Source of the DNA: an uncultured Desulfurococcales archaeon
GTDB lineage: Archaea > Thermoproteota > Thermoprotei_A > EX4484-217-1
Reading direction: 5' to 3'
DNA length: 64,000 nt
NCBI GenBank assembly: GCA_964406965.1
Contig: CAYOTT010000005.1
Coordinates: 54,878-118,877 of the forward strand
Shown: piece by piece, positions 8,737 to 55,665 of the stretch
Position numbering within the stretch: the stretch's first letter is position 1
Layout: each line of letters starts with the position of its first letter
The notes under the pieces: generated by a model
What the model was told of the DNA's origin: nothing
What the model saw: only the letters and a program-made list of their open reading frames with translations
Databases searched by the model: none
Made by a program: the position numbers and the translations under genes

Positions 8737-8743
8737 CGCTTAC

Positions 8744-10714: not shown

Positions 10715-10716
10715 AA

Positions 10717-12060: not shown

Positions 12061-13322
12061 TTCTTAAGCTCCCCATATATTTGCTCTAAAATTTTAAATG
12101 CCTCATCAGCTACTTCCTCGTTAATTTCCGTTTTCCTCATACCTTCGCTATATTCTCTACCTAATGTTGAAATTAGGTTCAAAATTATTTCTGGTGAAAG
12201 CTTTAATCCGAATTTCTTAAGTGCTTGCTCAATGGCTTCCTTCTCCAACTCTTCAATATTTGATAGGTCGGACCTAAATTCCTCGAGAAATGTTATGTAT
12301 TCTTCTGCAGATTCGCTTCTAACGATATGTACCCAAGCATTCAAGCTTCTAGCAACATCATTGATCATTTTTCTTACTCTACTATATTTTTCAATGCTAA
12401 CTTTACCCGTGTAAACTATTATGCAGCGATATTTTTCATTCATATCTCTTATTTTCCTTTTAACCTCGTCAGCTACATTTTCTAAACCATAGGTTTCTAC
12501 TACTTCTACATCTACCCCAAAATTATTTGTTAAGGCCTTTATTGAGGCAGCATTTCTCCCTAAATTCACTAGTAATACTCTTCTATTGGTTCTTAGCTTC
12601 TTCTTTAAAATATAAGTCTCATATATGTCATTAGCATCTCTTCCTATAGGCGATCCTGGGTAAGCTACGTTGCCTTCAAAAAATTCGCTATAGGGTATTG
12701 GGAAGTGTATGTGTCCTAATGCTAAATATTTGAAGTGTTTATGAATTGAAGCATAGGCTTCTTCAGAAAGTTTAATCATACTATATTTTGGGCTTATTTT
12801 TGAAATATCTATGCCTGAATAAATGTAAAGACCTGTATGTGCTATGAGAATATTGTCCTTGTTTTCATCGTAATCTTCATAAACCACTCTGCGGCGCTCA
12901 AGATATTCTACTTCTCTCTCCCCTCTCAAACCAGGTAATCCATAGAAAACTACTCCATCGACTTCTAAGGGTTTTAAATAAAGTTTGTAATTTTTCTCCT
13001 CATGTTTTGTTAAATGCACTAAACCTACTTCCCCTAAGATAGAGAGAACACCATGCCCCCTAGCTGTTAAGTCATGAGAACCAGGAGTAACTATGAATCT
13101 TAGCCCCTCTCGAACTCCTTTCTTAATTATTCTAACAACGTTTAATGTTGTTTCATGCCCTAATCTAGGTGTTTCAAATAAATCGCCAGCTACAATAATG
13201 TTCTTTACGTTTTCTGAAAGTGCTAATTCAACTATTTTCTCTAACGACTCCAAATTAGCTTTTCTAAGTACTGTGTGTGGAAATGCGCCAATATGAATAT
13301 CAGCTGTGTGAATAAAGTCCAA
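12057..13322 (-). CDS. mre11: Mre11 DNA repair nuclease (calcineurin-like phosphoesterase)
   Basis: N-terminus MDFIHTADIHIG (phosphoesterase motif I), GDLFE (motif II), GSHD, GHIH (motif V); 421 aa. Confidence 0.85.
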   Translation of the reverse strand: MDFIHTADIHIGAFPHTVLRKANLESLEKIVELALSENVKNIIVAGDLFETPRLGHETTLNVVRIIKKGVREGLRFIVTPGSHDLTARGHGVLSILGEVGLVHLTKHEEKNYKLYLKPLEVDGVVFYGLPGLRGEREVEYLERRRVVYEDYDENKDNILIAHTGLYIYSGIDISKISPKYSMIKLSEEAYASIHKHFKYLALGHIHFPIPYSEFFEGNVAYPGSPIGRDANDIYETYILKKKLRTNRRVLLVNLGRNAASIKALTNNFGVDVEVVETYGLENVADEVKRKIRDMNEKYRCIIVYTGKVSIEKYSRVRKMINDVARSLNAWVHIVRSESAEEYITFLEEFRSDLSNIEELEKEAIEQALKKFGLKLSPEIILNLISTLGREYSEGMRKTEINEEVADEAFKILEQIYGELKK

Positions 13323-13379: not shown

Positions 13380-13985
13380 CTACTTAACTAAACCTTGCTT
13401 CCTAAGCTCCTCTAAATCTTCAGGAGTATCTATATCTATGTATATTTCAGGAGAATTTACTGGAACTTCAACTATCCTATCGCTATACTTTTTAACAACA
13501 AACTTTAGCCCATATGTTTCTTCAGAAATGCTCATTAGATCATAATATAGTTTCATGTTGAAAAGTATTGGATGGCCTCTTCTACCCTTATATGATGGAA
13601 CAACTATTTCCGGCTTAGCTTCAATGAACTTCTCTATGACCTTATTTATAGTTTCATGCGTTATGAGAAGATTGTCTGCAGGAAGTATTGCTATGCCCTC
13701 AGCATTAACAACCTTAGCTGCTAAAACAGCTGCTTTAACAGAAGAGCTCATTCCTTCCTCATAGTTTACGTTGTAAACGAATGTTACGGGTAAGCCGCTT
13801 AATTCATCAATTATTTTTTCAGCTTCAAAACCTACAATAACAAAAATTTTTTCCGCTTTAGATTTTAAAGCTTCTTCAGTAACCTTTCGTATAATTGTTT
13901 TATCATTTATTTTCTCAAGTAACTTATTTCTACCATATCTCTCAGATTTTCCTGCAGCAAGTATAGCTAATGCAATCATTTTCAA
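13380..13985 (-). CDS. MobA/MocA-like molybdenum cofactor nucleotidyltransferase
   Basis: N-terminal nucleotide-binding motif AILAAGKSERYGRNKLL (LAGGxSxRMG), 201 aa, 3 nt downstream of xdhC. Confidence 0.7.
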   Translation of the reverse strand: MKMIALAILAAGKSERYGRNKLLEKINDKTIIRKVTEEALKSKAEKIFVIVGFEAEKIIDELSGLPVTFVYNVNYEEGMSSSVKAAVLAAKVVNAEGIAILPADNLLITHETINKVIEKFIEAKPEIVVPSYKGRRGHPILFNMKLYYDLMSISEETYGLKFVVKKYSDRIVEVPVNSPEIYIDIDTPEDLEELRKQGLVK

Positions 13986-13988
13986 GCA

Positions 13989-14813
13989 TCACACTATTGA
14001 TAAGTGATTTCCTGAAGCCCTCCTCTCTATTTTAAGTATTTCAGCTAGAACACTTACAGCTATTTCCTCAGGTGTTTTCGCCCCAATATCGATACCTACT
14101 GGGGCATAAACTCTTCCTTTAAGCTTTTCTAAACTATATCCTTCCTCTTGGAGCTTTTGAAGATACGTTCTTATCTTACTTCTCGAACCTAAAACACCTA
14201 TGTACTTAGCTTGCGAATTTAATGCCTTCTTTAAAGCCACGTAGTCGTGGTTTATTTCCCCATGCACTATTAATACGTAGTCTCCACTACCTATATTAGC
14301 TTCATCTATTGCTTTACCCCATTCATTCACAATTATTTTTTCAACATTAGGGAATTTTTCGGGTGAAGCATGTTTAGGATTATCGTCTATGACCCATATG
14401 CGATAGCCTAAAAGAGCTGCTAAATTAGCTAAAGGTTTTCCAACATGTCCCACACCTAAAACTAAAATTCTAGGCCTAGGCTTGATAACATCTATAAAAA
14501 CGGTCAAAACACCACCACATATGAGCCTCGTTTTGTAAGCACCTAAAGGTACGTTATCTTCTCTAAAAGCAAACTTTACAGTTTTAGGTTTCCCCTCATT
14601 AAGGGCCTTAATAGCTTCTTTAATAACCATTCTTTCAAAAGGACCGCCACCTATTGTTCCAATAGTTTTACCATCAGGGAACACTAGCATTTTAGTTCCA
14701 GGACCTCTAGGTCCGGAACCTTCTTTTTCAACAATTATGCATAGTGCTACAGGTTCTCCCTTATCTACAGCTTCCTTTAAAGCGCTAATTACTGCCTTAT
14801 TGGATGCGTTCAT
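13989..14813 (-). CDS. xdhC: XdhC/CoxI family molybdoenzyme maturation protein
   Basis: N-terminal XdhC_CoxI region (PVALCIIVEKEGSGPRGPGTKMLV) plus C-terminal Rossmann-like domain (LVLGVGHVGKPLANLA). Confidence 0.7.
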   Translation of the reverse strand: MNASNKAVISALKEAVDKGEPVALCIIVEKEGSGPRGPGTKMLVFPDGKTIGTIGGGPFERMVIKEAIKALNEGKPKTVKFAFREDNVPLGAYKTRLICGGVLTVFIDVIKPRPRILVLGVGHVGKPLANLAALLGYRIWVIDDNPKHASPEKFPNVEKIIVNEWGKAIDEANIGSGDYVLIVHGEINHDYVALKKALNSQAKYIGVLGSRSKIRTYLQKLQEEGYSLEKLKGRVYAPVGIDIGAKTPEEIAVSVLAEILKIERRASGNHLSIV

Positions 14814-18765: not shown

Positions 18766-19569
18766 ATGGATAAAGCAGCTCTTTACGGGAAATTAAATGT
18801 AGCTAAAGTAGTTATTGATGGCGAGAACGTTTCTATAAATATATTTAGCGATGTTCTTGTTAAAGAACATCCATTAGTAATTAAAATTAACGGCGTTGAA
18901 ATTAGGAGGTACATTGTTTCCGAAACTATGTTAAAAGAATTTATTATAGGGAACCTCTTTTCGCTAGGTATAGTTAATAATTTATCGGAAATTAAGTCTG
19001 TTTCATTTAAGGGAAACGAAGTTAACATAAAGCTTGACCCTAAAGCTTTAAGAAGAACTCCTATCTTAACCATAACACCATCGTGTGATGAGCAAGTACT
19101 ACCAGAAATCAGTGGTGAAAAATTAGCGATTAACAATAAAATTAGAGCGGAAAGCATTTTAGAAGCAATTAAGCAAATGTTCACTTCTTCAAACGTTTTC
19201 AAAGAGACTGGTGGAACACATGTTTCCTCACTTTTCGACATAGATTCTTCAAGAACTCTCATAGTAGTTGAAGACTTGGGTAGACATAATGCTGCAGATA
19301 AAGTATTGGGTTGGGGTATTTTAAGAGGAGTATCCTTTGAAAAAGTGGCAATAGTTACTTCGGGTAGGGTTTTCAGCGATTTAGTAGTGAAAGCTTTTAG
19401 AATAGGGACTCCCATAATAATTTCTAAATCTGCCCCATCATACGATGCTGCTTTGAAAGCAAGAAAATACGGAATAACATTGATAGGGTTTGCTAGAGGA
19501 AATAGGTTTAACGTTTATTCTGAACCCGGAAGAATAGTGGAACTAGAAAACATAGTTTTGGAAGATTAA
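18766..19569 (+). CDS. fdhD: sulfurtransferase FdhD (formate dehydrogenase/Moco sulfuration accessory protein)
   Basis: FdhD signature EDLGRHNAADKVLG, 267 aa. Confidence 0.8.
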   Translation: MDKAALYGKLNVAKVVIDGENVSINIFSDVLVKEHPLVIKINGVEIRRYIVSETMLKEFIIGNLFSLGIVNNLSEIKSVSFKGNEVNIKLDPKALRRTPILTITPSCDEQVLPEISGEKLAINNKIRAESILEAIKQMFTSSNVFKETGGTHVSSLFDIDSSRTLIVVEDLGRHNAADKVLGWGILRGVSFEKVAIVTSGRVFSDLVVKAFRIGTPIIISKSAPSYDAALKARKYGITLIGFARGNRFNVYSEPGRIVELENIVLED

Positions 19570-23676: not shown

Positions 23677-25470
23677 TCACTTTTCCACAGTCTTAAATGG
23701 ACATATTCTAGCATAAAAGCAGTATTTACAATTGTGAACTATACCAGCTGGTGTTAAGTAATTTTCTATATTTTCAACTTCAATATTATAAACCTCTCCG
23801 CGATATGAATTCGGAAGTATCCTCTTAATCCTAACCCATACTCCTCCCTTAATAAACCACGCTTGCGGATTTCTCTTCCTATATGTTGTCCATCTAACGT
23901 GAAATATGGGGTGTTTACCCCAGCCAGGTTGTCTTTGGGAGCTTTTTAGCGTAGGCAGTATTTTTTGCCTTAGTAGCATTATGACAAGCTGGTAAGCGAG
24001 CTTAGGGCTTGTAGTAGTATAATCAAACATTCCGTCCTTATAGACGTGGCCGTCGCCAGCTACCATCCCTTCTACTATTGTTCGTTGAGATTCAGGGGGT
24101 AAGTATAGGATTTTTTCTCTAAAGTGTTTCCTAGGAGCATATCTTCCCGTTTTGGGGTCTTTCTCCCATTCGATGAAATTATCAGCTAATTTACGCCATT
24201 TCACACCTAAGTTTATAACGTATTCATCTCCATGGGGCGGTGGGAGCTTGTAGAGATGAGATGAGTATGAAATACCATGTTGTGTTGCTATATCTTCAAC
24301 TCTCTTTACAATATTTTCCTCATGTGTACCCAGTGTAAGCACTATAGAAAATTTACCTCTCGGGAAGCCTTCGGCAACAGTAAGTCCAAGTAGCCATAAT
24401 AAGTTTTCTGTTAGACCCAAATCAAGAGGTCTATACTTAACCTCACTGGGATATGGTATAAATATCCATGGTTGTGCTTTGTACTCATCATTTATGTCTC
24501 TTTGCGCTTCACGTTCCATAATTTCGTAAATTTCCTTAACCGTTAACCATTGTGGCTCTGTAAAGATACGGCATCGTGTCCTTGACGTTATTTGAACATA
24601 ATACCCTCTCTGCTTATATGAATTAACTTTTTCTATATTTCCCCACTTGGAGAATCTAACGAAAATTGGATGATTCTCTGTAATCACTATGTGATTAAGA
24701 CCTGCAGGCTCTATGGTGAAGCATTGTTCATTCTTATGTATTTGTCTTCGAATAACTTTTGTTACTATTGCAACTCTATACTTGCCCGTTATTTTGTCCA
24801 TGCCGATGATTTTGTCTCCTTCTTTAATAAGCCTTATCGTTTTCATACCATCCGGAGTAAAGATAAGTGTGTTTGGGTGAAGGCATTCCCAACTATATCT
24901 TGGATGCTTTATGTTTTCTATAGTTTCCTTTACTAGTTTCTCAAGGTCTATTGGTGTTTTTTCAATGCTAAATTCAGCTATCCTATCAGGTGTTATGTAT
25001 ATTAGTATTCCTTTTTCTCTATTTAGAATGTTAAGATAGATCTGTAGCTGCATTAAGTGGTGGTCGTGAGGTATTCCTAAGTCGCTTCTTGCCGTTTTTA
25101 TTTCAACAACATAGTTTTCATTTAGGGCATCAACTCTTCCCTTGATCTTAACTTCTCTGTTATCTATAGATATCTCTTTTTCAAACTCTACTTCCACTTG
25201 AAAACCTTCTTCCTTAAGAAAACCTTCAATACCTATGTGCACCATGTCACCTAGTATGTGAGCGGGTTCAAATTTGAACATTAATTCGGGATATCTTATT
25301 CTGAACTCCCTTTTTTGACTGCATGAAACCATATCTGTAACGTAAACTATGTTAGGGTTTGTTGCATCCTTAAAATGTTCTCTGTAGTCACTTAAAACTC
25401 TTCGATAAAGTTTCTCCATAACTATGTTTGATGCTTTAAACTTCTCTGTTGAATTCAATTTACAATACAC
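23677..25470 (-). CDS. Cas4-family (DUF83/RecB-like) PD-(D/E)xK nuclease with 4Fe-4S cysteines, interrupted by an intein
   Basis: Exteins (aa 1-195 plus the last 17 aa) contain the N-terminal Cys (MVSCSQKREF), nuclease motifs GRVDALNENYVVEIKTA (D...ExK) and HHLMQLQIYL (QxxxY). After splicing, the C-terminal motif WE-CKYCFYARIC (Cx2Cx5C) is reconstituted. Confidence 0.65.
   Translation of the reverse strand: MYCKLNSTEKFKASNIVMEKLYRRVLSDYREHFKDATNPNIVYVTDMVSCSQKREFRIRYPELMFKFEPAHILGDMVHIGIEGFLKEEGFQVEVEFEKEISIDNREVKIKGRVDALNENYVVEIKTARSDLGIPHDHHLMQLQIYLNILNREKGILIYITPDRIAEFSIEKTPIDLEKLVKETIENIKHPRYSWECLHPNTLIFTPDGMKTIRLIKEGDKIIGMDKITGKYRVAIVTKVIRRQIHKNEQCFTIEPAGLNHIVITENHPIFVRFSKWGNIEKVNSYKQRGYYVQITSRTRCRIFTEPQWLTVKEIYEIMEREAQRDINDEYKAQPWIFIPYPSEVKYRPLDLGLTENLLWLLGLTVAEGFPRGKFSIVLTLGTHEENIVKRVEDIATQHGISYSSHLYKLPPPHGDEYVINLGVKWRKLADNFIEWEKDPKTGRYAPRKHFREKILYLPPESQRTIVEGMVAGDGHVYKDGMFDYTTTSPKLAYQLVIMLLRQKILPTLKSSQRQPGWGKHPIFHVRWTTYRKRNPQAWFIKGGVWVRIKRILPNSYRGEVYNIEVENIENYLTPAGIVHNCKYCFYARICPFKTVEK
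23731..24885 (-). mobile_element. intein (about 385 aa) with LAGLIDADG homing-endonuclease domain
   Basis: Begins CLHPNTLIFTPDG (block A) and has TENHPIFV (block B). Two LAGLIDADG motifs LLWLLGLTVAEGF and IVEGMVAGDGHV. Ends VYNIEVENIENYLTPAGIVHN, followed by +1 Cys (blocks F/G). Flanking sequence is contiguous Cas4 extein. Confidence 0.85.
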
Positions 25471-36098: not shown

Positions 36099-37277
36099 CT
36101 ATCTTGAAGATTTCAACTTATACTTAAAAACCCTCTTTAAAAGAACAGGAGTACTTAATGAAGTAGCGTAAATTAAAAGTAAAGTGCCAAAGTATAGTTC
36201 TTGCGTTATAGCTCCCATAGTTAAGCCGGTAACGGCTATTACCAAGTCAACACCAGCTCTAGGTATCATACCGATGCCTATGGCTAAAGCCTCCTTCCAT
36301 GTCATGCCTGAAAGTTTTGCCGCTAAGCCGCAGCCCACTATTTTCCCTATAACTCCTAAAGCTACAATAGTTAACCCTATTGTTATAATTCTATAAAGAC
36401 CATTTGATTCCAGAACACTCCATGGATTTAGGAGAATTCCCGCGTAAACGAAGAATAAAGGTGTTATTATAGCTGATAAAAATTCTAATCTATCTCTTAT
36501 AGCACTTGAACCTGGAAGCTCAGATAAAGCTAAACCTATGAAGAAAGCACCAACTAATGGTGAAAGTCTAAAGAAGGCTGAAAGCGTTGCTATAGATAAA
36601 CCCATAATAAATACTGTTGTAAAAGCTGACTCGTGAACTCTAAGTTCTTTAAGGAAATGCCCTATTTCCCAGGAAAATCTATGAGCCATGAAAGCTATTA
36701 GGAAAATAATTAATAAGCCTATAATAATCGGATATAATCCTTCAGCACTTATTTTGTTTTCTAAAACCATAGAGTAAACTAGTGCTAAAACAATTATTCC
36801 ATATATGTCATCGGCTACTGCCGCACCCAAAATAACATGTCCTTCCTTAGTGTGTAAAATGTCAAGTTCCATAAGTGTTCTAACAGTAACTCCAACAGAT
36901 GTAGGAGTTAAAATAGCGCCTAAAAACAGCATGGCTTTAATATCGTAGCCAGCAATGTAAGCATAAGAAAATCCAAGCATAAAACATGCTATTACACCTC
37001 CTAGAGCAACTAAAAGCACTTGAAACCCATACTTTTTAAACTCTGAAATACTGCTTTCAATACCTGCGAGAAAAAGTAAAATAACTATTCCAACCCATGC
37101 TAGAGACTCTATATTTTCTGTCGTCGAAACAAGACTTAAAACTGTTGGACCAACCAAAATTCCTGCAAGAAGGTCTCCGAGAATTGTTGGCTGCCTTAAA
37201 CGGGCCATAATTTCCTCTAATCCCTTTGCCACTAACAGTACTATGGTTATATCGAAAAGTATTAAGGCCTCCCTCAT
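36099..37277 (-). CDS. cation:proton antiporter (CPA2/Kef-type Na+/H+ exchanger family)
   Basis: 392 aa, about 12 TM. N-terminus resembles the other two paralogs in the window (EEILAKLRQPTILGDLLAGILVGP). Confidence 0.8.
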   Translation of the reverse strand: MREALILFDITIVLLVAKGLEEIMARLRQPTILGDLLAGILVGPTVLSLVSTTENIESLAWVGIVILLFLAGIESSISEFKKYGFQVLLVALGGVIACFMLGFSYAYIAGYDIKAMLFLGAILTPTSVGVTVRTLMELDILHTKEGHVILGAAVADDIYGIIVLALVYSMVLENKISAEGLYPIIIGLLIIFLIAFMAHRFSWEIGHFLKELRVHESAFTTVFIMGLSIATLSAFFRLSPLVGAFFIGLALSELPGSSAIRDRLEFLSAIITPLFFVYAGILLNPWSVLESNGLYRIITIGLTIVALGVIGKIVGCGLAAKLSGMTWKEALAIGIGMIPRAGVDLVIAVTGLTMGAITQELYFGTLLLIYATSLSTPVLLKRVFKYKLKSSR

Positions 37278-37410: not shown

Positions 37411-38586
37411 TCATTCACCCGTTTTTACACTATAAAGATATTTTAATAGTACTGGTGTAAATATTGAAGAAGCATATATTAGAAGCATTGTTCCAAAGAG
37501 GGTTTCTTGACTCACAATGTTTAATGCTATTCCGGTAAAGGCTATTATTGAAGCAACCTCGGCTCTAGGAACCATGCCGACACCTACTATGAGGGCTTCA
37601 CGCCATGAGAAATGAAACATTTTCGCGGTGAATGCGCATCCTATTATTTTTGAGACGAAGCCTATTATAATAAATGTTAATATGTAAGAGAGCGTAATGA
37701 AGCTAAACGTTATTTCTTTAATACTCAATGTTAACCCTACTAGTGCAAAGTAGACCGGCGACATTAAAGCAGTAAGTGCTGAAAGTTTTTCCCTAAAAAC
37801 ATCTATTCCAGGCATTCTAGAAAATGCTAAACCCATGAAAAATGCGCCAACAACAGGGTTCAAATTCATGAAGCCTACGCCTATAGCAACAAAGAGTCCG
37901 TAAATGAAGGTGGTTACGAAGAATGCTTCTTCGGTTTTAAGCTCCCTTATTAGAAATCCTATTTTTGCAGCATGTTTCTCAGTAAAATAATATATCATAA
38001 TTAGTATGCCTAAACCAATGAATGCCGTAGCAACAGTGAAAAACCCTGCTAAACCCTTCCCTCCCACAGCTATTGCATAAATTATTGCCAATACTAGTAA
38101 GCCATAAATATCATCAAAGACGGCTGCACCTACTATTACATAGGCTTCCTTAGTTCCATAGGCGTGAAGCTCCATAAGTGTTTTAATTGTAACACCAACA
38201 GACGTGGCTACGAGAATAGCTCCTATGAATAGCGATTCATTAATAGTATAATGGTAAATTAGCCCTAAAGTGAAACCTGAAATAAAGCTTATAACTACAC
38301 CGCCTAAACCAACTATTGCTCCCATGAGACCGTATCTCTTCATTTTCTTAATGTCAGTTTCGGAACCTGCAAGGAAAAGTAAAGACACTAAACCCAATGT
38401 TGCAATTATTTTAATGGATTCTGTAGGGCTAATTAAGCCTAGTATTGAAGGTCCCAAAATTATTCCTGCAAGAAAATCTCCTAAAACAGGAACTTGACCG
38501 TACTTAGCTAGGATCTCTTCGAAAACTTTAGCTAAAGCAATTATTAACACAATGTTAAACAGTATCATGAGAACTTCAGATTCCAC
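37411..38586 (-). CDS. cation:proton antiporter (CPA2/Kef-type), tandem paralog
   Basis: 391 aa, same architecture (EEILAKYGQVPVLGDFLAGIILGP). Confidence 0.8.
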   Translation of the reverse strand: MESEVLMILFNIVLIIALAKVFEEILAKYGQVPVLGDFLAGIILGPSILGLISPTESIKIIATLGLVSLLFLAGSETDIKKMKRYGLMGAIVGLGGVVISFISGFTLGLIYHYTINESLFIGAILVATSVGVTIKTLMELHAYGTKEAYVIVGAAVFDDIYGLLVLAIIYAIAVGGKGLAGFFTVATAFIGLGILIMIYYFTEKHAAKIGFLIRELKTEEAFFVTTFIYGLFVAIGVGFMNLNPVVGAFFMGLAFSRMPGIDVFREKLSALTALMSPVYFALVGLTLSIKEITFSFITLSYILTFIIIGFVSKIIGCAFTAKMFHFSWREALIVGVGMVPRAEVASIIAFTGIALNIVSQETLFGTMLLIYASSIFTPVLLKYLYSVKTGE

Positions 38587-46623: not shown

Positions 46624-47976
46624 TTAGAGCGTGTGCTTTGTTGTATGAATTCTCTCTACCAAAATGTAGGGGGCTATGGTAGGTATTTCAGCTTCCCACC
46701 ATTTAATTTGATATCTTCTTCTACCCAAGTCTTTTATATTACGAAGCAATCTAGGTAGTCTATCTGTTATCCTAAGTTTCGTCACAGCTTTACTTATTTC
46801 ACCGTTTTCTATAAGAAATAGTGCATCTCTTGTTACTGTTGAAAACATTCCTTCAACATAGTTTTGCAACCTAGTATACCAATTGTTCGTTATTAAGAGC
46901 CCCTTCTTAACTTCTGCTATTAATTCATCATATTTAAGTTCTCCAGCCGCTATTTCCAATGACCATGGATGCGGATTTATCCAGCCAGCATTTCCCGTAG
47001 ATTTGACCCCATATTTTCTCGCTGTTTTACTATTGTGAAGAAATGTTTTCAAAATACCTTTCTCTATTATCGCATTTCTTCTCGTTAAAACACCTTCATC
47101 ATCAACATATGTCATAGAGTACGACTCTGGGTTTCTCGGATCATCAATTAATGTTAACTTATCAGAGGCTACAACATCACCTACTTTATTATTTGCAAAA
47201 ATAGATAAGCCCATGTCAACTTCAAAAGCTGAAGCCATAGTACCTATTATGTTGAAAATGTTACTTACAACCATCGGTGAAAGTATTACATCATACACGT
47301 CTGCTGCTACCTTTTCCCTTCTTTTAGAGGCTAATGCATATTCTGAAGCTATTCTTGTTGTTTCAACAATTTCTTCTCTTCTAAGAATTCTTCCAGCCGA
47401 TGCCCATTGCCCACTTCCTTCACCTTTAAATACTCTCACATAGAATTCGTATTTTCCATAACTTTCTAATGTTTCAACTCCCGTAGATGTGGCTAAGGCT
47501 TCAAAACCAGCTACAACCTTAAACATTCCAGCAAGTTTATCTATTTCATAAGTTAATGCTGCGTTTAAAATTTCTTCAGAGTACGTTTCAGGTTCAGTAA
47601 GAGCCTTAATTATTGAATCATGTATTTCAGCTGGTCCTTTAATTTTCGTTTCAAGCTTAGGTAATGGCGCATAGTATTCTGATGGTTCAGAAAGCTCTAT
47701 TTCTGAAACAAAGTTTCTAATGAAGCCAAGGGCGTCTTCTTCCCGAGGTATTTCGAAGCTTAACGTTGTCACCCTTCTATTCTTAGCTAAATATACTGAT
47801 ACGCTAACGTTATTCCAGCTTTGCAAAATACTTGGCTGACTATTAGCGAATTTCACCATCGCTTCATCTTCATAATTCACTATGGCAGCTACCTCTTCAA
47901 ACCCCGCCTTTAAAGCTTCAGTTACGGTTTTTTTAGCTAAACTTACAATTTTATTTTCATCTATTTCCTCAATCAA
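46624..47976 (-). CDS. pmbA: PmbA/TldE-family metalloprotease subunit
   Basis: TldD/PmbA fold without the HExxxH motif. ORF track extends to 48033 (GTG). The probable start is the TTG at 47976, which overlaps the tldD TGA stop (TTGA). Confidence 0.7.
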   Translation of the reverse strand: MIEEIDENKIVSLAKKTVTEALKAGFEEVAAIVNYEDEAMVKFANSQPSILQSWNNVSVSVYLAKNRRVTTLSFEIPREEDALGFIRNFVSEIELSEPSEYYAPLPKLETKIKGPAEIHDSIIKALTEPETYSEEILNAALTYEIDKLAGMFKVVAGFEALATSTGVETLESYGKYEFYVRVFKGEGSGQWASAGRILRREEIVETTRIASEYALASKRREKVAADVYDVILSPMVVSNIFNIIGTMASAFEVDMGLSIFANNKVGDVVASDKLTLIDDPRNPESYSMTYVDDEGVLTRRNAIIEKGILKTFLHNSKTARKYGVKSTGNAGWINPHPWSLEIAAGELKYDELIAEVKKGLLITNNWYTRLQNYVEGMFSTVTRDALFLIENGEISKAVTKLRITDRLPRLLRNIKDLGRRRYQIKWWEAEIPTIAPYILVERIHTTKHTL

Positions 47977-49409
47977 TAGGGAGCAACCCCCAAAACTATA
48001 CTCCTCAATCTGACATTGGGTCCCCCAAACCACACAGGAACTCCCTGCGCAGGCTCACCCTTACCACATGTTCCAGCATGAAATTCTAAGCTTCTATCTG
48101 CAGCATCTACACTATTATAGAAGCTTTCAGTCGTTATTTCGAGGACAGGGTATTTTACATATCCTCTAATTTCGCCTTTTTCAATAAGGTATGATTCTAA
48201 ACCAACATATCGTTGGCTCCATCTTAAATCGTCAATGTTCCACTCCATGTATGATTTAATGTATACTCCTAACTTAATATCTTCTATTAACTCTTCAAAA
48301 CTCATATCTCCCGGTTTAAAATATGTATTAGACATTCTAATTATAGGCTCTGAAGCATAATCTTTAGCTCTAGCTGAACCATTGCTTACAACGCCAAACA
48401 TTCTTGCAGTCCATCTATTATGAAGAAGCTCATTAATTATTCCATTTTTATATAAATACTTAGGCCTTGCTTTAACGCCTTCATCATCGTAAAGGTAATA
48501 ACCATAGCTTTCAGGAATAGTTGGGTCGTCTATTACGTTAACTATTTCGTTGCCTATTCTCTCCTTTCCTACCATGTCTTTTTTAATGAAACTTTCACCA
48601 GCCTGAGCAGCTTCCCTACCTAAAATCCTATCTGCTTCGCTAGGATGTCCGCATGACTCATGAACTATTAATCCGACAACTTCGCTTCCAATCACAACGT
48701 CTACTTTCTCTTTAGGAGGAGATTTACCTTCAAGAAGTACTTTTTCAAGTATTTTAGCTTCAGTTACAACTTTCTCTTTAATATTCCATTTCTCCAGAAG
48801 TTCTAAGCCCCCGCTGCTGCCCCTTTCAAAAAATCTTTGCATAGTGCCTTTTTCAGGCGCATTTATTACGAAATTGCCGTAAATGCTTACTCTTGGAACA
48901 TAGCTTTTCACTTTAACACCTTCACTTGTTACTAGCAATTTTTCCTCGGAACTTTCAATATACTCTATGAAAAATGCTTGCATTCTAGATTTCCTCAGCG
49001 CATTTCTGGCTTCACTCCAGATTTCCTTAAAAAGCGCTATCTTGTCTTTAAGGCTCATACTATCAAAATTTTTCTTCATAGGTGCACTGTATTTTGCTTC
49101 TCTAGGTTTCATATGAGCAAGCTCTATAGGCTCTCTGTATTGGGCAGCTAAAGCCCTTGCCTTCTCTATGGCTCTTTTAACTATTTTTGTAAGTGCTTCA
49201 CGTGATAAAATGTTTGTAGAAGCGAAGCCTAAAGATCCATTTACTAAAACCCTTACACCTACTCCCTCGCTTACTGACTTCCCTACGCTAATTACTTTAT
49301 CATATTTCATTACAATATATGATTCTGCTACTCTATGATACCTAGCTTCAACATATTCTGCACCCTCACTAGTGCCGACGCTGACAACATGGTTCAAGAG
49401 CTCCTCCAT
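47973..49409 (-). CDS. tldD: TldD-family metalloprotease
   Basis: HESCGH zinc motif (LIVHESCGHPSEADR), 478 aa. Confidence 0.85.
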   Translation of the reverse strand: MEELLNHVVSVGTSEGAEYVEARYHRVAESYIVMKYDKVISVGKSVSEGVGVRVLVNGSLGFASTNILSREALTKIVKRAIEKARALAAQYREPIELAHMKPREAKYSAPMKKNFDSMSLKDKIALFKEIWSEARNALRKSRMQAFFIEYIESSEEKLLVTSEGVKVKSYVPRVSIYGNFVINAPEKGTMQRFFERGSSGGLELLEKWNIKEKVVTEAKILEKVLLEGKSPPKEKVDVVIGSEVVGLIVHESCGHPSEADRILGREAAQAGESFIKKDMVGKERIGNEIVNVIDDPTIPESYGYYLYDDEGVKARPKYLYKNGIINELLHNRWTARMFGVVSNGSARAKDYASEPIIRMSNTYFKPGDMSFEELIEDIKLGVYIKSYMEWNIDDLRWSQRYVGLESYLIEKGEIRGYVKYPVLEITTESFYNSVDAADRSLEFHAGTCGKGEPAQGVPVWFGGPNVRLRSIVLGVAPY

Positions 49410-49476: not shown

Positions 49477-50619
49477 TTATTCACCAATTTCCTCCTTTAA
49501 CCACATAAATTCGCTAGCCGGAGTAATTATGTACATTACATCTTCGGGTTCACTAAACATCACTAGGTTTTCTAAAACTTTTTCCGAATTCATTAGCCTA
49601 TAATTAGGTGATGCTGCCTTAAATAATGTAATATAAGCATTTCTCCCAATACTTAAGCTTTCAGATGAAATACCTAGTATTTCCGAAGAACCATGAAGAA
49701 CAGTCTTAAATAACTCCCTAACTGATGTTTTGAAGTCCCAATAACTGCTTCTAACGAATCTTAATAACTCCCTAAGTTCGTCAAAGAGGAATCCTGAAGA
49801 ACATGTTAAAGAACATGATCCCAACGCGAACATTATTTTCTCTTTAATAAATTCTTTAGCTGGAGGAAACCCTCCAGGTGAATGTAAAAGGCTGCATTGA
49901 GGTGTTAAGATTACTTTAGCGTTTGAAGCCTTAATTAACTCTATTTCTCTACTAGTTATCCATTCAACACCTACTAAAACGACATTTTCCTTTAGCCCAT
50001 TAATTTTTTCAAGATAGCTTACTTGGAAATCTCCGTACTCCCTCTTAAACTGGAAAACTTCGTTTCTAGTATTTGCTATGTGTATTGAAACTAATGAGCC
50101 ACTATTTTCTCTTACTATTTCAGAGAATTCTTCAGGAGTAAATGTTCTTAGAGAATCTACATGTATGAATTTCTCTTTACCAAAGCCTTTTTCCCTAAAA
50201 CTCTTAACTAAGTATCTCCCTTTAAAAATAATGGGTAAGCTCTTCTTCCTTAAGCGTAAGTTTTCCGGGTTAGGGTCCAAGGTTAAAAGAGCTGTTAAAC
50301 CATTTTTCACAAGGAACTTTTCAAGAACCTCCATGTTGAATGAAGAAACGGGGTTTTCTAAAAGCATGCTCCACAACTTTAACCAGTCACAGTCAAGGAA
50401 CATTCCCCTATAATTGTAAGTAAATAAATGTGTATGAGCATCAACCATTCCAGGTACTGCTACCATTTTCGAGCAATCAATTAATGGTTCTCCCTGTTCT
50501 CTTACAATATCCTTGCCTATTTCAGCAATTCTTCCTTCTAGAATTCTTATGTCAATGTTTTCCATAATGAACGTGCCTTCTAGATTCAATATAGCGTATC
50601 TGCAATTCTTAAGTATCAT
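49477..50619 (-). CDS. amidohydrolase-family metal-dependent hydrolase (deaminase/chlorohydrolase-like)
   Basis: Metal-binding HxH in VAVPGMVDAHTHLF, later His/Asp ligands; 380 aa. Confidence 0.6.
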   Translation of the reverse strand: MILKNCRYAILNLEGTFIMENIDIRILEGRIAEIGKDIVREQGEPLIDCSKMVAVPGMVDAHTHLFTYNYRGMFLDCDWLKLWSMLLENPVSSFNMEVLEKFLVKNGLTALLTLDPNPENLRLRKKSLPIIFKGRYLVKSFREKGFGKEKFIHVDSLRTFTPEEFSEIVRENSGSLVSIHIANTRNEVFQFKREYGDFQVSYLEKINGLKENVVLVGVEWITSREIELIKASNAKVILTPQCSLLHSPGGFPPAKEFIKEKIMFALGSCSLTCSSGFLFDELRELLRFVRSSYWDFKTSVRELFKTVLHGSSEILGISSESLSIGRNAYITLFKAASPNYRLMNSEKVLENLVMFSEPEDVMYIITPASEFMWLKEEIGE

Positions 50620-51311
50620 TTTCTTATCAACTCTATTTTCTCTACAACATATTTTCCTTCAAACTCTGATACTATGATTTTTCTTCCATAAACTTTAAGT
50701 TTATACTTAAATAATGGGGCATCAATTACGAATGTTTCTGCTTCGCCGCCTTCAAAAGCGGGGTTAAATCCATACTTTTTAGCTCTATAAATTATTTCAT
50801 CAACATTTTCCTCATCAATAACTTTACCTAGAAATTTAAGAGGCAGACCATAAGCCTTTATTTCTATTATTAATGCTTTAATACCATGTTTAACTAAGTC
50901 TCTAATGTATTCTTCTTGGTTTTTACGCCAAAGTGGACTATAAACCGCTAATCCCAGTTCTTCAGCAACAAAATTAATGTTCATTCTTTGATAATCTGAA
51001 AGAAGAGCCCCTGTAACAACAGCTTCAATACCGTATCTTTCCATAGCTAACTCTAGTGCTTTTCTAAATTCTTTAAGTTCTTCACCTTTAATACCGGAAG
51101 TCTCAACTCTTATTTGTGGTAGCTCCAACGCTTTTGCTTGATACTCCGTATAATCTATCATTGGATAGTGGAACATCCATGAATTCTCTCTTTTCGGTTT
51201 TAACGTTACTAAGCATTTAATGTTGAAGCCTTTAAAGAATGCTAAATGCAACGCATAATTACTATCCTTACCTCCAGAATATAGTGAACATGCTTTCAAC
51301 TGGTAAAGCAC
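50616..51311 (-). CDS. dph6: diphthine-ammonia ligase (Dph6, MJ0570-family PP-loop ATPase)
   Basis: PP-loop SLYSGGKDS at the N-terminus, 231 aa, EGGEAETFV motif; overlaps the amidohydrolase gene by 4 nt. Confidence 0.7.
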   Translation of the reverse strand: MLYQLKACSLYSGGKDSNYALHLAFFKGFNIKCLVTLKPKRENSWMFHYPMIDYTEYQAKALELPQIRVETSGIKGEELKEFRKALELAMERYGIEAVVTGALLSDYQRMNINFVAEELGLAVYSPLWRKNQEEYIRDLVKHGIKALIIEIKAYGLPLKFLGKVIDEENVDEIIYRAKKYGFNPAFEGGEAETFVIDAPLFKYKLKVYGRKIIVSEFEGKYVVEKIELIRK

Positions 51312-51387: not shown

Positions 51388-52641
51388 ATGAACTATGAGG
51401 GATTAGCTATGTTATCTGCTGAAGAGTTACTGCTAAGTCTTATGTTGGCTTTAGCGTTAGCTATGATTGTAGGTAAGCTCTTTGAAGAACTATTTGCTAG
51501 GCTAAAATTTCCCCCCGTAATAGGAGATTTAGTAGCTGGTTTAATCCTAGGAACAGCCTTGCTGAATATTTTCCCTATAAACGATACAGTCAAGGTTATC
51601 GGATGGTTTGGAGTTGCAATTCTCCTATTTTATGCAGGTCTCGAAACACGCTATAGAGATTTTATGAAGAATCTGAAACTTTACGGAATAATAACTATCG
51701 GTGAAGCTATTGCAGCATTCGCAATAGGCTACCTTATAGGGATAGCTTTCGGCTACCCGCCTAAATCAGCATATTTCATAGGTGCTGTTTTAGAAGTTAC
51801 AAGCATTAGCGTTACGGTAAGAACGCTTATAGAAATAGATAAGCTAGGCACCCCTGAAGGATACACAATACTTGGTGTTGCTGTTTTAGACGACTTAGTA
51901 GCGTTAATAACAATAGTTGCTGAAGCAGCCTTCATAACTACAGGAAGGTTCGGCATAATTGTTCTAGCAAAAACAGCTACCTTAGCCTTCCTTTTCTAGA
52001 TTGTAACGGTCTTAATATTGCATAAATTATCAAGTAAAATAATGTCATTAGCTTTCAAAATGCATATTGAAGAAGCTTTATCCTCGATTCTCTTAGGAAT
52101 ATTTGCTCTATCAGCTTATTTAACAAAGTACTTCGGCTTATCACCTTTAGTTGCAGCTTATGCAACAGGTTTAGCTTTTTCGGAAGCTAGAGGTATTAGA
52201 AGAGTTTCTGAAAGAATGCGTTTTCTATCAATGATATTTTCCATAATATTCTTTATGATTACAGCTGCTGAACTAGATATTAAGCGAACCATTAATTTTA
52301 ACTATTTACCATTTTACCTAGCTATGTTAGGCAGTGCTTTTCTAGGTAAAACTTTCGGTGGAGGATTAACTTCATTTCTCATAGGATACCCTGCTTTAGC
52401 CTCTTTACGTGTAGCTTTTGGATTATTTCCGAGAGCAGAATTCTGCATAATAGCAGCTTATATGGGATATTCATATGGCATTCTAGGTGCAGAAGCATAT
52501 TTAGCAGCATTACTTATAGTCTTAGTAACGAACTTTATAACACCACCCCTTCTAAAGTATGTTTTTGAACATGGACCTCCAACTAAGCATATTGAGTTTC
52601 GCTGGAGAAAACTTATATGTAGAAGGGGGAGGCGAAAATGA
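51388..52641 (+). pseudogene. cation:proton antiporter (CPA2/Kef-type), third paralog, interrupted by an in-frame TAG at 52000-52002
   Basis: ORFs 51388..51999 and 52018..52641 are in the same frame. Read-through gives ...TATLAFLF*IVTVLILHKLSSK..., which is colinear with the intact paralogs at 36099 and 37411. Confidence 0.7.
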
Positions 52642-53177
52642 GGGACTATGGAAGCGGCAAGATTATTCTTAAGAAATTCTACTCAGCGCTTGAGGAAGTT
52701 TTAAAGATGAAAATAGAGAACTTTCTTGAGCAACATAAAGACATCTTACCTAAATTTGAAGTTGTACATGAAAACGAAAGCGTTGAAGAAGTCCTTAAAC
52801 ATCTTAAAGAGGATAAACATTACATAATAGTTATTGACAAGAAAGGTAAAATGAGAGGCATAATAACATACATAGATTTTATGATAATGTTCGGTAAGAA
52901 GAGAACAACAGCCTTATTTGCCCCATTTTCGTCGGTAACAAGGTCGCTTAAAAGAGCACATATGCCGCTTAAAACTCTCGCTGAACTCAAGGCTTCAGAT
53001 ATTATGAACATTGCACCACCACATGTTTGGAATCATTCCAAAGTAGAGGATGCGTTAAACAATATGAGTAAAACAGGGAATAACTTCGCAGTAGTTATAG
53101 CGAAGAGGGAAAAGGTAGTAGGCATTATTACAGCTCACGCTATTTTTAGAGCTATAATTCGTAAAGCTGAACTGTAA
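52638..53177 (+). CDS. CBS domain pair protein
   Basis: Two CBS motifs; overlaps the antiporter stop by 4 nt; 179 aa. Confidence 0.75.
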   Translation: MRDYGSGKIILKKFYSALEEVLKMKIENFLEQHKDILPKFEVVHENESVEEVLKHLKEDKHYIIVIDKKGKMRGIITYIDFMIMFGKKRTTALFAPFSSVTRSLKRAHMPLKTLAELKASDIMNIAPPHVWNHSKVEDALNNMSKTGNNFAVVIAKREKVVGIITAHAIFRAIIRKAEL

Positions 53178-53196: not shown

Positions 53197-53607
53197 CTAC
53201 AGGATTTTGATGTTACGTATACTTTTTAATGCTAATAGCTTAGCTGTTTTAACAGTTCCAGGTGCAAGCTCTGGAATATGCTTCGTTTTTAAAACGACAG
53301 CTTCTATACTTTCTTTACCTCTAATATGAGCAATATATGCTCTTGCATGTCCATCAACTATATAATACTTTCCTCCAAACTCCAACACTACTATAGGATT
53401 AGTAAACTCCCTTTCTTTCATTAACGTTCTAACCTTTGATTTCTCAATAAATGGCTGTGTTGGAACAAGTTCATCAGTATATACCCTCCCATATTTTACG
53501 AGAACACTTTTTCCATAGATTCTTCTATAATACTCAACGTACTTAACTATAGTTTTCCAGTAATCATACTCTCTAGGTAAGTGCTCATTAGTGGTTATTA
53601 TTTCCAT
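53197..53607 (-). CDS. small ParB/Srx-fold (ParB N-terminal nuclease-like) domain protein
   Basis: 136 aa; core IVVLEFGGKYYIVDGHARAYIAHIRG matches the ParBc consensus (y.iidGhhRlrAa). Confidence 0.5.
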   Translation of the reverse strand: MEIITTNEHLPREYDYWKTIVKYVEYYRRIYGKSVLVKYGRVYTDELVPTQPFIEKSKVRTLMKEREFTNPIVVLEFGGKYYIVDGHARAYIAHIRGKESIEAVVLKTKHIPELAPGTVKTAKLLALKSIRNIKIL

Positions 53608-53966
53608 AGAGTTCCAAGTATACTTAAACCTCGGATAATAGTTTTAAAAAATATTCTAAACGCTTTAACACTTGAGTGCCCAGAAATATATTTAGCATAA
53701 CATCTATGATGTCCGTCAATAACGAAGTACTCACTACCTGTCGTAATAGCTACTATTGGTAAATCATAATTCTCGATAAGGGTTTTCTTAAGGACAATTG
53801 CTAACTTCTCTAGTTCAAGAAATTTTTCAGTAGCGTAGAGTTTAGGAAAACTTATTGATGTTTCGATGTAACTTAGTTTAACGCTATATATTTGCTCAAA
53901 ACTCCTTATAATTGATTTTAATCTTTCAAAAGCTTCTTTATATGATGAAACAACACGTACTGTCAA
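53598..53966 (-). CDS. small ParB/Srx-fold domain protein, tandem paralog
   Basis: 122 aa; core IVAITTGSEYFVIDGHHRCYAKYISG; overlaps the downstream paralog by 10 nt and the upstream ATPase gene by 4 nt. Confidence 0.5.
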   Translation of the reverse strand: MTVRVVSSYKEAFERLKSIIRSFEQIYSVKLSYIETSISFPKLYATEKFLELEKLAIVLKKTLIENYDLPIVAITTGSEYFVIDGHHRCYAKYISGHSSVKAFRIFFKTIIRGLSILGTLWK

Positions 53967-54766
53967 CTTCTTCTCTCAACTTTATTCTTTAAAATTTCCA
54001 CTATTTTACCTATTCTTTCAGCTACTTCAGTTTCTAAAAGCTTTTCTGGAGCATTTTCATCGAGGGCCTTAGCTATTTTGAAGTCAAATGGTATTTCAAT
54101 AACATATTCTATATTGTATTTATTAGCTAGTGAAAATACATTACCTTCCCCCATGATGAAAGCTCTTTCACCAGCAATTACGTAATATGCCATGTTGTTT
54201 ATAAGCGCTAGAACGGGAACTTTAAGGTCACTAAATAATCTAATGGCCCTTTCAACAACGCTTAATGAAATTCTTGAAGGTATTGTTACTATCAAAGCCC
54301 CCCTACTTCCATTAATGCTTTCTACAGAAGTTAATGTTTCATCACCTGTTCCGGGAGGTAAATCAACAACTAGGAAGTCTAAAGAACCCCAATTAGTTAT
54401 TGCTAGTAACTCCTTGATTGCATTAGTTTTTGCTTTACCTCTTAAGGGAATTGCTTCATTTTTCGCAAAGAAACCTATGGACATTACTTTTACTCCTAAG
54501 GTCTCAGGAGGCACCAGCCCCTTCTTACTCTCCTCAGGCTCAGTATTTTCTAAACCTAAAATTTCAGGAATCACTGGGCCATGAAGATCTAGGTCTAGAA
54601 GTCCAACATTAAATCCTTCTCTAGAAAGCTTAAGAGCTAAAATAGCTGAAATAGTTGATTTTCCAACACCACCTTTACCACTCCCTATAAGCACAGTATA
54701 TTTTATGTTCCTAAATCTTTCCTTAATAATTGCATCTCTAGGATCATAGAATTCCATGATAACCAC
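53963..54766 (-). CDS. Mrp/MinD-family P-loop ATPase (ATPase-type HypB-like)
   Basis: Deviant Walker A GSGKGGVGKST, Mrp/NBP35-type motif VVDLPPGTGDE. It lies immediately downstream of hypA, as for the Mrp/MinD-type HypB of Thermococcales. Confidence 0.7.
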   Translation of the reverse strand: MVIMEFYDPRDAIIKERFRNIKYTVLIGSGKGGVGKSTISAILALKLSREGFNVGLLDLDLHGPVIPEILGLENTEPEESKKGLVPPETLGVKVMSIGFFAKNEAIPLRGKAKTNAIKELLAITNWGSLDFLVVDLPPGTGDETLTSVESINGSRGALIVTIPSRISLSVVERAIRLFSDLKVPVLALINNMAYYVIAGERAFIMGEGNVFSLANKYNIEYVIEIPFDFKIAKALDENAPEKLLETEVAERIGKIVEILKNKVERRS

Positions 54767-54769
54767 CGC

Positions 54770-55204
54770 TTATTTTATGAAATCTATTTTAGCTATGTAA
54801 ACCCCTCTTCCCTTCACTACTTCAAAATCCGGGCTTCCACACTTAGGGCATTTTACAAACGAGTTTACTAAATCGGGAACATAATGTACGGGATTGTCAC
54901 ATTCTTTATCTGATGATCCACAAAACACTTCATTAATTCTCTTTTTCACATTAGTAAAGTTCCATGTAAAACCGCAGCTTAAGCATTTAAAAACCGCTTC
55001 TTCAATTTCAAAAAGAAACTCAGCATTCTTAAGGACATCATAATCTCTTTTAAGCTCATTAGTAGCTGATTTTAAGATCTCTAATTCTAACTGAGAAAGC
55101 TCACCTACCTTCACATAGACCTTAACAACCTTTGAAGCCCCATGTTCTTGAGCTATTTTAGCTGATGAAACAACTATGCTTTCGGCAATACTCCATTCAT
55201 GCAA
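54770..55204 (-). CDS. hypA: hydrogenase nickel-incorporation/metallochaperone HypA
   Basis: N-terminus (M)HEWSIAESIV, two CxxC pairs (CLSCG ... CPKCG); TTG start; 144 aa. Confidence 0.8.
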   Translation of the reverse strand: MHEWSIAESIVVSSAKIAQEHGASKVVKVYVKVGELSQLELEILKSATNELKRDYDVLKNAEFLFEIEEAVFKCLSCGFTWNFTNVKKRINEVFCGSSDKECDNPVHYVPDLVNSFVKCPKCGSPDFEVVKGRGVYIAKIDFIK

Positions 55205-55401
55205 AACATGTACACCCTACCGAAAAACTAGTATCATAGAAAATAAAGCTTTAGCTACAATACGATATAGGGTTTAACTACGCAATTAAGCTCTAAGAGC
55301 AAACTATTTATTCTCCTTCAAAGGCTAACTTGGTTAAGGGTAAGGTGAGCAAGTGCATGCCTAATGAATGCAAAGAGTTAAGCATAGGATTTAATGATAA
55401 A

Positions 55402-55665
55402 ATGTTTTACGCTAAAGTTTGCGGTAAAAGAGTAGTAAAGGCTTCTTTACGAAATAGATAATGACGTTTTTCACATAATATCAACATACACGCTTAGAGC
55501 ATTTAGGGGCAAAGGTTTAGCATCTAAAGTCGTGAAGAAAGCACTAGAATATGCTTTAGAGAGAAAATTTAGAAAACTTAAGGTTTCATGTAGCTTCGTA
55601 AAAAAATGGTTAGAAAAACACCCTGAATTTAAAGATAAATTTGAAGAAATAATTTTTCTAGCCTA
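55402..55665 (+). CDS. GNAT-like N-acetyltransferase (Acetyltransf_CG/YjdJ family), 87 aa (not in ORF track)
   Basis: MFYAKVCGKRVVKLLYEIDNDVFHIISTYTLRAFRGKGLASKVVKKALEYALERKFRKLKVSCSFVKKWLEKHPEFKDKFEEIIFLA. This matches the ...HTEVPEALRGQGIASQLV...LKVxPSCSYVxxYLEKHPEY pattern of this small GNAT family. Confidence 0.55.

Follow-up and report, generated by a model that had tools for sequence, protein, structure and literature searches.

The two small open reading frames (ORFs) that follow hypA and hypB in this 64,000-nt stretch of DNA from an uncultured Desulfurococcales archaeon (the window from here on, to which all numbering refers) are the two halves of a single gene. It extends from 53197 to 53966 and codes for a cytosolic protein of about 256 aa, split here by a one-base deletion in a run of five A. 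We have called the intact two-domain protein ParB2. The best explanation, to which we would assign a probability of roughly 0.6, is that of a single tandem gene coding for a predicted nucleotide-binding, probably phosphotransfer-type enzyme that stands next to hypA and hypB by lineage synteny, a reading that draws on sequence comparison and structural modelling. A preliminary description of this DNA had proposed an operon in which HypA and a MinD-type HypB were joined by two separate mini-proteins of the ParB/sulfiredoxin (Srx) fold, as accessory factors of metal-centre maturation or as a co-opted ParA/ParB-like module. Its four ORFs, all in the same direction on the minus strand, were found exactly where it had placed them, and the features of the gene cluster are as follows:

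54770..55204, minus strand: hypA, Thermococcus-type nickel metallochaperone (144 aa; NF003008, PF01155, 3A43)
53963..54766, minus strand: ATPase-type hypB of the Mrp/MinD/NBP35 family (267 aa; PF10609, 3VX3)
53197..53966, minus strand: disrupted ParB2 gene with two tandem ParB/Srx-fold units (256 aa when intact)
53598..53966, minus strand: ORF of the N-terminal half of ParB2, domain 1 (122 aa; ATE, a PTE-type motif, and DGHHR)
53197..53607, minus strand: ORF of the C-terminal half of ParB2, domain 2 (136 aa; PTQ and DGHAR)
53642..53645, minus strand: frameshift site in the inter-domain linker (A4 here, A5 in L018, AGAAA in L002)

The genes are tightly packed, with 3 nt between hypA and hypB and with the TTG start codon of ParB2 overlapping the stop of hypB (TTGA).

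That the two ORFs belong together is seen most directly in a nearly identical strain. L018, a 240-kb contig from ENA with 99.885% identity to the window over 20.8 kb, has a single ORF of 256 aa at this place (P0001), and the sole difference between both sequences over the gene cluster is the run at 53642-53645, with four A in the window and five in L018. The same region contains a single 256-aa ORF in L002, an uncultured Desulfurococcales metagenome-assembled genome with 95% nucleotide identity, and all the more distant homologues examined are also fused. Over the 98 related loci that we fetched, which are the basis of all the neighbourhood analyses given here, an ORF of ~255 aa was found in 92, and in 4 of these 92 it was split, every break being located elsewhere. 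ParB2 appears as two ORFs in three metagenome loci, L045 (3941-4723), L047 (3956-4735) and L051 (601-1380), again with different break positions, so breaks of this gene recur among assemblies. The traces of the frameshift can be read in the window itself, where the last 15 residues of the 122-aa ORF (KTIIRGLSILGTLWK) are an out-of-frame tail and the 136-aa ORF begins at the ATG that codes for Met121 of the intact protein. The two small proteins are indeed paralogous as had been described (27% identity, E 1e-11); they are not separate genes, being the products of a 1-nt frameshift in one gene of 256 aa. The same deletion is present in the Logan assembly L001 and, because this assembly differs from the window elsewhere, the A4 lesion may be a real strain polymorphism, homopolymer error being the alternative.

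We examined programmed -1 frameshifting at TTTTTTAAAAC and discarded it, given that a slip on the T run reaches TAA at once and a slip on AAA needs a first-position mismatch; transcriptional slippage on T6/A4 is unlikely. As a separate observation from the strain comparison, the segment 62729-62842 has nine single-nucleotide polymorphisms (SNPs) and an 11-nt indel in the window with respect to both L018 and L001, over a surrounding ~20 kb that is almost identical.

Once joined, the protein could be placed in a family. An exhaustive HMMER search retrieved 166 relatives at E <= 1e-3, the top ~30 being mostly of 250-265 aa with two matched stretches; a profile search of a set of 5.8 billion proteins gave 56 family clusters of 211-279 aa, and a metagenome scan added 262 further loci. 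The archaeal family so assembled, which is uncharacterised, comprises at least 153 different proteins, drawn chiefly from Bathyarchaeia and Desulfurococcales, and the motif counts given here are over these 153 unique sequences. The best label that NCBI offers for the family clusters is "ParB N-terminal domain-containing protein", and none of the models searched is dedicated to ParB2. Six members (P0151, P0168, P0172, P0177, P0179 and P0189) bear the JGI label "IMP dehydrogenase", apparently a propagated mis-annotation. The separate halves had been far less informative: word-indexed homologue searches with each of them and a two-sequence profile run against the PDB gave no match, their ParB-like matches were sub-threshold (0.002 and 0.12 for PF08857; 0.015 for TIGR00180), and a single-sequence AlphaFold2 (AF2) model of the 122-aa half was uninformative, with a predicted local distance difference test score (pLDDT) of 43.

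The AF2 model of intact ParB2, built with 50 homologues, reached a pLDDT of 93.7 and a predicted template modelling score of 0.90, and contains two domains. Each half starts with a long N-terminal helix followed by a beta-alpha-beta-beta-alpha-beta core, so that ParB2 consists of a unit of ~130 aa repeated twice, i.e., N-terminal helix, ParB/Srx (ParB-CTPase-fold) core and short C-terminal tail. All the matches listed by Foldseek in the PDB were ParB/Srx proteins (Atu1540, Noc, ParB, 1VK1/SerK, pNOB8 ParB-N, sulfiredoxin, PadC, KorB and SbnI), each spanning one ParB2 domain, with a probability of 1.0 for Atu1540, Noc, ParB, 1VK1, pNOB8 ParB-N and Srx, and lower values (0.54-0.80) for the SerK entries. 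The top match was Atu1540 (2HWJ; E 3.6e-4, probability 1.0), a single-domain bacterial protein of PF08857 (ParBc_2) that shares 14-21% identity with ParB2 over ~100-125 residues. PF08857 was also the only Pfam model that intact ParB2 passed at the gathering score (29.2 bits against a cutoff of 23.6), and it matched 19 of 21 members (E up to 0.1). The ParB/Srx fold of the preliminary description was therefore well seen, and the model and the profile match agree in confirming ParB2 as a member of the ParB/Srx (ParB-CTPase-fold) superfamily.

The motifs are strongly conserved in both units. In domain 1, DGHHR is present in 148 of the 153 members, T46 in 146 and E47 in 122 (with Q in 26), while E51 and K54 are near-invariant. 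Domain 2 has DGHxR in 151 members and a P-T-Q motif with T170 in 150 and Q171 in 141. Box II GxxR is the phosphate motif of the ParB-CTPase/Srx fold (PMC12704722), and the conservation of GHHR and GHxR therefore indicates that both domains have kept it. Three family members, P0024, P0037 and P0038 (133-139 aa), are stand-alone single repeats with the N-terminal helix, the DGHHR core (DGHCR in P0037) and the C-terminal tail. P0024 (134 aa) can be aligned over its full length to domain 2 (E 2e-19) and equally to domain 1 (E 4e-15), which shows ParB2 to be a tandem duplication of such a unit. Single repeats of ~134 aa are likely the ancestral form. The result is a tandem architecture unlike that of every characterised member of the superfamily, for which we found no description in the searchable literature; nothing relevant was found either on hypA together with ParB-like proteins or on PF08857/Atu1540.

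The comparison with the best known members of the superfamily, the CTP-dependent DNA clamps ParB, Noc and KorB, separates ParB2 from partition proteins. They have its N-terminal fold and also a Box II GxxR P-motif, and the nucleotide-driven dimerisation of two ParB N-domains offers a plausible parallel to the covalently linked ParB2 pair. They differ in the motif itself, which is GERR instead of GHHR, and in the rest of the protein, as ParB2 lacks a helix-turn-helix (HTH) domain (no Pfam match, the two ParB/Srx units filling its 256 residues), a C-terminal dimerisation domain and the ParA-binding motif. The latter, (L/F/I)G(K/R)G(L/F/I) as defined in PMC12704722, was found in 1 of the 153 members and is absent from the window protein. 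Intact ParB2 reaches 16.9 bits with TIGR00180, whose cutoff is 58.45. On these grounds ParB2 was rejected as a partition ParB, and the idea of a ParA/ParB-like module loses its support. Sulfiredoxin (1XW3, 3CYI) has the same minimal fold (target-normalised TM-score ~0.5) and carries out ATP-dependent phosphotransfer chemistry on a GxxR-type loop; its catalytic Cys (GGCHR) is replaced in ParB2, with GHHR and GHxR, and ParB2 is two-domain and archaeal.

The nearest characterised proteins by profile search are the free L-serine kinases with a ParB/Srx domain, SerK (TK0378; PDB 5X0B to 5X0K; P. furiosus PF0380, 1VK1) and SbnI (5UJD/5UJE). Against the PDB, the profile search ranked SerK 5X0J first (E 0.0034), followed by SbnI 5UJD, 1VK1 and ParB. 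The best NCBIfam match was likewise SerK, NF053625 (E 1.5e-5 to 6.5e-9), at 24-35 bits, its cutoff being 380; NF033589 gave 16-19 bits against 350. Like ParB2, these enzymes have no HTH, were long mis-annotated as ParB and include archaeal/thermophile proteins of ~240-255 aa. SerK has the same DGHHR as domain 1 of ParB2 (DGVHR in SbnI), and in the alignment the P-T-(E/Q) of the family falls on the P-H-E30 of SerK and DGHHR on DGHHR, so that the acidic residue at the Glu30 position (P-x-E) is E47 in the 122 members that have it. Glu30 of SerK is reportedly the catalytic base, according to the work of Nagata and colleagues of 2017. The difference lies in the overall architecture, SerK and SbnI combining a single ParB/Srx domain with a C-terminal domain of unrelated type and ParB2 having two ParB/Srx units, and global superposition on the 5X0x entries gave a TM-score of only ~0.24 with a root-mean-square deviation of ~15 Å. 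We therefore rejected that ParB2 is SerK itself, its C-terminal domain being different and NF053625 below cutoff, and also that it is the Desulfurococcales SerK of Makino et al., with scores far under the equivalog cutoff.

A second pointer comes from P0010, a Bathyarchaeia-like protein of 527 aa in which ParB2 is fused to the phosphohistidine swivel domain of phosphoenolpyruvate (PEP) utilisers (3.6e-26) and to a TIR (ThsB-like) domain. Dikinases use a nucleotide-binding domain to phosphorylate this swivel domain. By analogy, the fusion gives a weak hint that ParB2 might perform nucleotide-dependent phosphotransfer. The unusual architecture of P0010, taken as a whole, might connect ParB2 proteins with phosphotransfer or else with defence. 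The profile ranking of SerK and SbnI and the swivel fusion together favour an enzyme of the kinase or nucleoside triphosphatase (NTPase) type, as far as sequence and model can suggest.

The mechanism that would fit these data is the following. The two domains of ParB2 would pack as an intramolecular pseudo-dimer, the counterpart of a homodimer formed by two of the ~134-aa single-repeat homologues, and the D-G-H-x-R of each domain (Box II, GxxR) would bind the phosphates of a nucleotide, as motif and fold suggest. ParB2 would then be a nucleotide-dependent phosphotransfer enzyme or NTPase, like SerK and SbnI, rather than a DNA-partition ParB, with domain 1 retaining the DGHHR of SerK and having a Glu where SerK has Glu30. 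The location of the gene downstream of hypA and of the ATPase-type hypB (hypB_AT) would reflect synteny in one Desulfurococcales clade and not a dedicated role in nickel insertion.

The identity of the two upstream genes had been correctly recognized. HypA passes NF003008 (142.3 bits, cutoff 125) and matches PF01155 (3.9e-25), its best solved relative being T. kodakarensis HypA 3A43 (E 1.2e-30). The MHE N-terminus of the nickel site (MHEW) and the zinc-binding CxxC pairs (C73/C76 and C119/C122) are kept, and His107 pairs with Tk His98 in the alignment. The hypB product matches PF10609 (1.6e-71) and T. kodakarensis HypB_AT 3VX3 (E 1.4e-47), with structures 5AUN-5AUQ listed among its PDB matches; it has the deviant Walker A GKGGVGKS, shares the LDLDxHG and PLRGK motifs with 3VX3 and contains no cysteine. 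At the position of the CxxC of Fe-S carriers (CPNCGE in 3KB1) it reads VIAGER, and 3VX3 is likewise without CxxC. An alternative start, the ATG at 54757, would make it 264 aa long. Both proteins are thus matched by the T. kodakarensis HypA-HypB_AT pair (TK2008-TK2007; 3A43, 3VX3, 5AUN), down to the nickel-site residues and the cysteine-free ATPase; the window ATPase scores slightly better, though, against Mrp-type proteins of A. fulgidus (3KB1, E 3e-53). On this sequence evidence the assignment as hypA and MinD-type hypB is sound. To our knowledge, a third co-directional gene of the ParB fold is no part of the described T. kodakarensis system. The preliminary description had also reported that hydrogenase genes are missing from the window, and among the 46 window ORFs scanned with Pfam we found neither a hydrogenase nor any further hyp gene.

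The question is then what the linkage to hypA and hypB means. Using the window HypA and Mrp as tblastn queries, we found hypA/mrp upstream of ParB2 in 12 of the 98 loci, exactly those with a ParB2 at least 45% identical to the window protein, which represent about 5-6 species. None of the remaining 86 had them; ParB2 there is at most 43% identical to the window protein over the best segment, and 58 of these loci include at least 1.3 kb of upstream sequence. Within the linked clade HypA goes down to 56% and Mrp to 53% identity, and the conserved unit extends beyond the hyp genes to unrelated genes of housekeeping type, comprising a divergent GNAT gene, hypA, hypB, ParB2, a Dph6-like PP-loop gene, an amidohydrolase, TldD and PmbA. 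The corresponding neighbours in the window are:

50616-51311, minus strand: Dph6-like PP-loop protein (Pfam)
49477-50619, minus strand: amidohydrolase (Pfam)
47973-49409, minus strand: TldD (Pfam)
46624-48033, minus strand: PmbA (Pfam)
51388-52641, plus strand: Na+/H+ exchanger with an in-frame TAG at 51997-51999, in an opposite-strand insert with the CBS gene
52638-53177, plus strand: CBS-domain protein of the same opposite-strand insert (51388..53177)
55330-55663, plus strand: GNAT acetyltransferase, divergent from hypA and frameshifted near 55440

The order Dph6-like, amidohydrolase, TldD and PmbA after ParB2 is also found in L009 and L023-L025, and the insertion of the CBS and exchanger genes after ParB2 is seen only in the sub-clade of the window. 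Outside the linked clade the neighbourhood changes. Bathyarchaeia have an aIF1A-like gene and a ~1000-aa FtsX-type membrane protein next to ParB2. In Desulfurococcaceae the neighbours are a winged-HTH (wHTH) protein of ~250 aa and genes for TYW1, TFX and DtxR-like, thioredoxin-like and NikR_C proteins; the wHTH gene is directly upstream of ParB2 in L011 (4184-5744), L014 (4283-5765) and L016 (4274-5780), overlaps its start in L014 and L016, and these two loci also contain NikR_C genes. Loci of this type may represent a different neighbourhood, rich in metal regulators. When all flanking ORFs of the 98 loci were clustered, no neighbour gene common to the whole family was found. As the hyp linkage is confined to one clade and lies inside a longer syntenic array, lineage synteny is the best explanation for it, and ParB2 is probably not part of nickel insertion.

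Several points weigh against the interpretation of ParB2 as a phosphotransfer-type enzyme placed there by synteny. Its predicted nucleotide binding has motif and fold as its only grounds, and a 2025 survey of the fold concluded that neither sequence nor AlphaFold3 can predict specificity (PMC12704722). The resemblance to SerK is marginal and does not go beyond a core of ~70 residues, the C-terminal domain of SerK being absent. The fusion in P0010 is known from one cluster and might reflect a chimeric gene call, and the proposed pseudo-dimer packing comes from a single AF2 model. Finally, conservation of the order hypA-hypB-ParB2 is perfect throughout the clade, even at 45% identity, and the stop of hypB overlaps with the start of ParB2 in the sub-clade of the window.

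The last two points also favour a role of ParB2 as clade-specific accessory of nickel insertion by HypA and HypB_AT, e.g., as a regulator or exchange factor that acts on the MinD-type ATPase in a nucleotide-dependent way, as ParB does on ParA. The three genes are co-directional in all 12 loci of the clade, and ParB-fold proteins are the classical partners of ParA/MinD ATPases (PMC12704722). However, no hypA or mrp is nearby in any of the other 86 loci, and the ParA-binding motif is practically missing from the family. Half of the linked clade, the 45% sub-clade, has a gap of 65-72 nt between hypB and ParB2, and it is with the Dph6-like gene that ParB2 is coupled there, its stop overlapping the start of the latter. 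The whole seven-gene array is syntenic, so descent can explain the adjacency, and the gene is broken in a natural strain. Moreover, the HypA-HypB_AT complex is said to work without a third protein in the work of Watanabe and colleagues of 2015. We thus consider a dedicated nickel accessory doubtful, and any functional recruitment of ParB2 to the hyp module in this clade similarly unlikely. The more specific version, a new class of the ParB-CTPase fold in which the linked pseudo-dimer was recruited in one Desulfurococcales clade as third component of HypA/HypB_AT, would be a long shot. The accessory role put forward in the preliminary description is therefore weakened and not refuted, the ParB/Srx similarity being real and the linkage being kept in relatives.

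A genuine, selected split into two single-domain ParB/Srx proteins forming a heterodimer is also improbable. It could be argued that the break falls in the inter-domain linker, that a pre-existing ATG (Met121) starts the second ORF, that single-repeat homologues of ~134 aa exist in nature and that the A4 allele is shared by two assemblies, the window and L001, that differ elsewhere. Against this, the gene is in one piece in the 99.9%-identical strain and in all other relatives, the N-terminal half carries the 15-residue out-of-frame tail, and splits are present in only 4 of the 92 loci, at unrelated positions. Furthermore, two neighbouring genes are broken too. The GNAT gene, frameshifted here, is an intact ORF of 111 aa in L002, and no gene is called at that place in L001 or L018; the exchanger has TAG at 51997-51999 where L002 has TGG (Trp), and L018 shows the same two-ORF split. 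The GNAT frameshift and the TGG>TAG change of the antiporter beside ParB2 therefore indicate gene decay or homopolymer error. The window has two intact paralogues of the Na+/H+ exchanger (36099-37277 and 37411-38586).

Equally poor is the case for ParB2 as a nuclease of ParB-like type or a protein that binds DNA, a function hinted at by the name given to PF08857 ("putative ParB-like nuclease"), the label "nuclease" that NCBI gives to one ParB2 member, an early report of PF0380 as a nuclease (PMC5120207) and the wHTH gene that overlaps the ParB2 start in Desulfurococcaceae, but contradicted by the fact that TK0378, a close homologue of PF0380, proved to be a serine kinase (PMC5120207), that no HTH or other DNA-binding domain was found in ParB2, that PADLOC gave no defence-system match for it, and that its contexts are of housekeeping type and not mobile elements.

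Other features of the window are worth recording. FeoB is encoded at 1162-3198. At 6322-13322 (minus strand) there is what looks like an archaeal DNA-end-resection operon, with a Rad50-like protein (804 aa), HerA (656 aa), an Mre11-like phosphoesterase (421 aa) and, in the NurA position, a 447-aa ORF with no Pfam match. An ORF of 597 aa at 23677-25470 (minus strand) contains an intein splicing domain and a LAGLIDADG homing-endonuclease domain. MobA-like, XdhC/CoxI and FdhD genes, accessory factors of molybdenum-cofactor enzymes, are located at 13380-14813 (minus strand) and 18766-19569 (plus strand), and the window thus holds several genes for maturation of metal cofactors, yet no hydrogenase.

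What appeared as an operon with two mini-proteins is then a frameshift artefact of one gene, with a hyp linkage confined to a single lineage. The significance of ParB2 lies rather in its fold. The ParB-CTPase/Srx fold is increasingly seen as a module of general use in nucleotide switches and kinases (PMC12704722), and here two tandem copies of it make up the protein without any further domain, which, if the proposed packing is true, would make ParB2 a natural "pre-dimerised" version, useful to understand how dimerisation is coupled to nucleotide binding. The fusion to a swivel domain suggests, in addition, a phosphotransfer activity that is open to testing.

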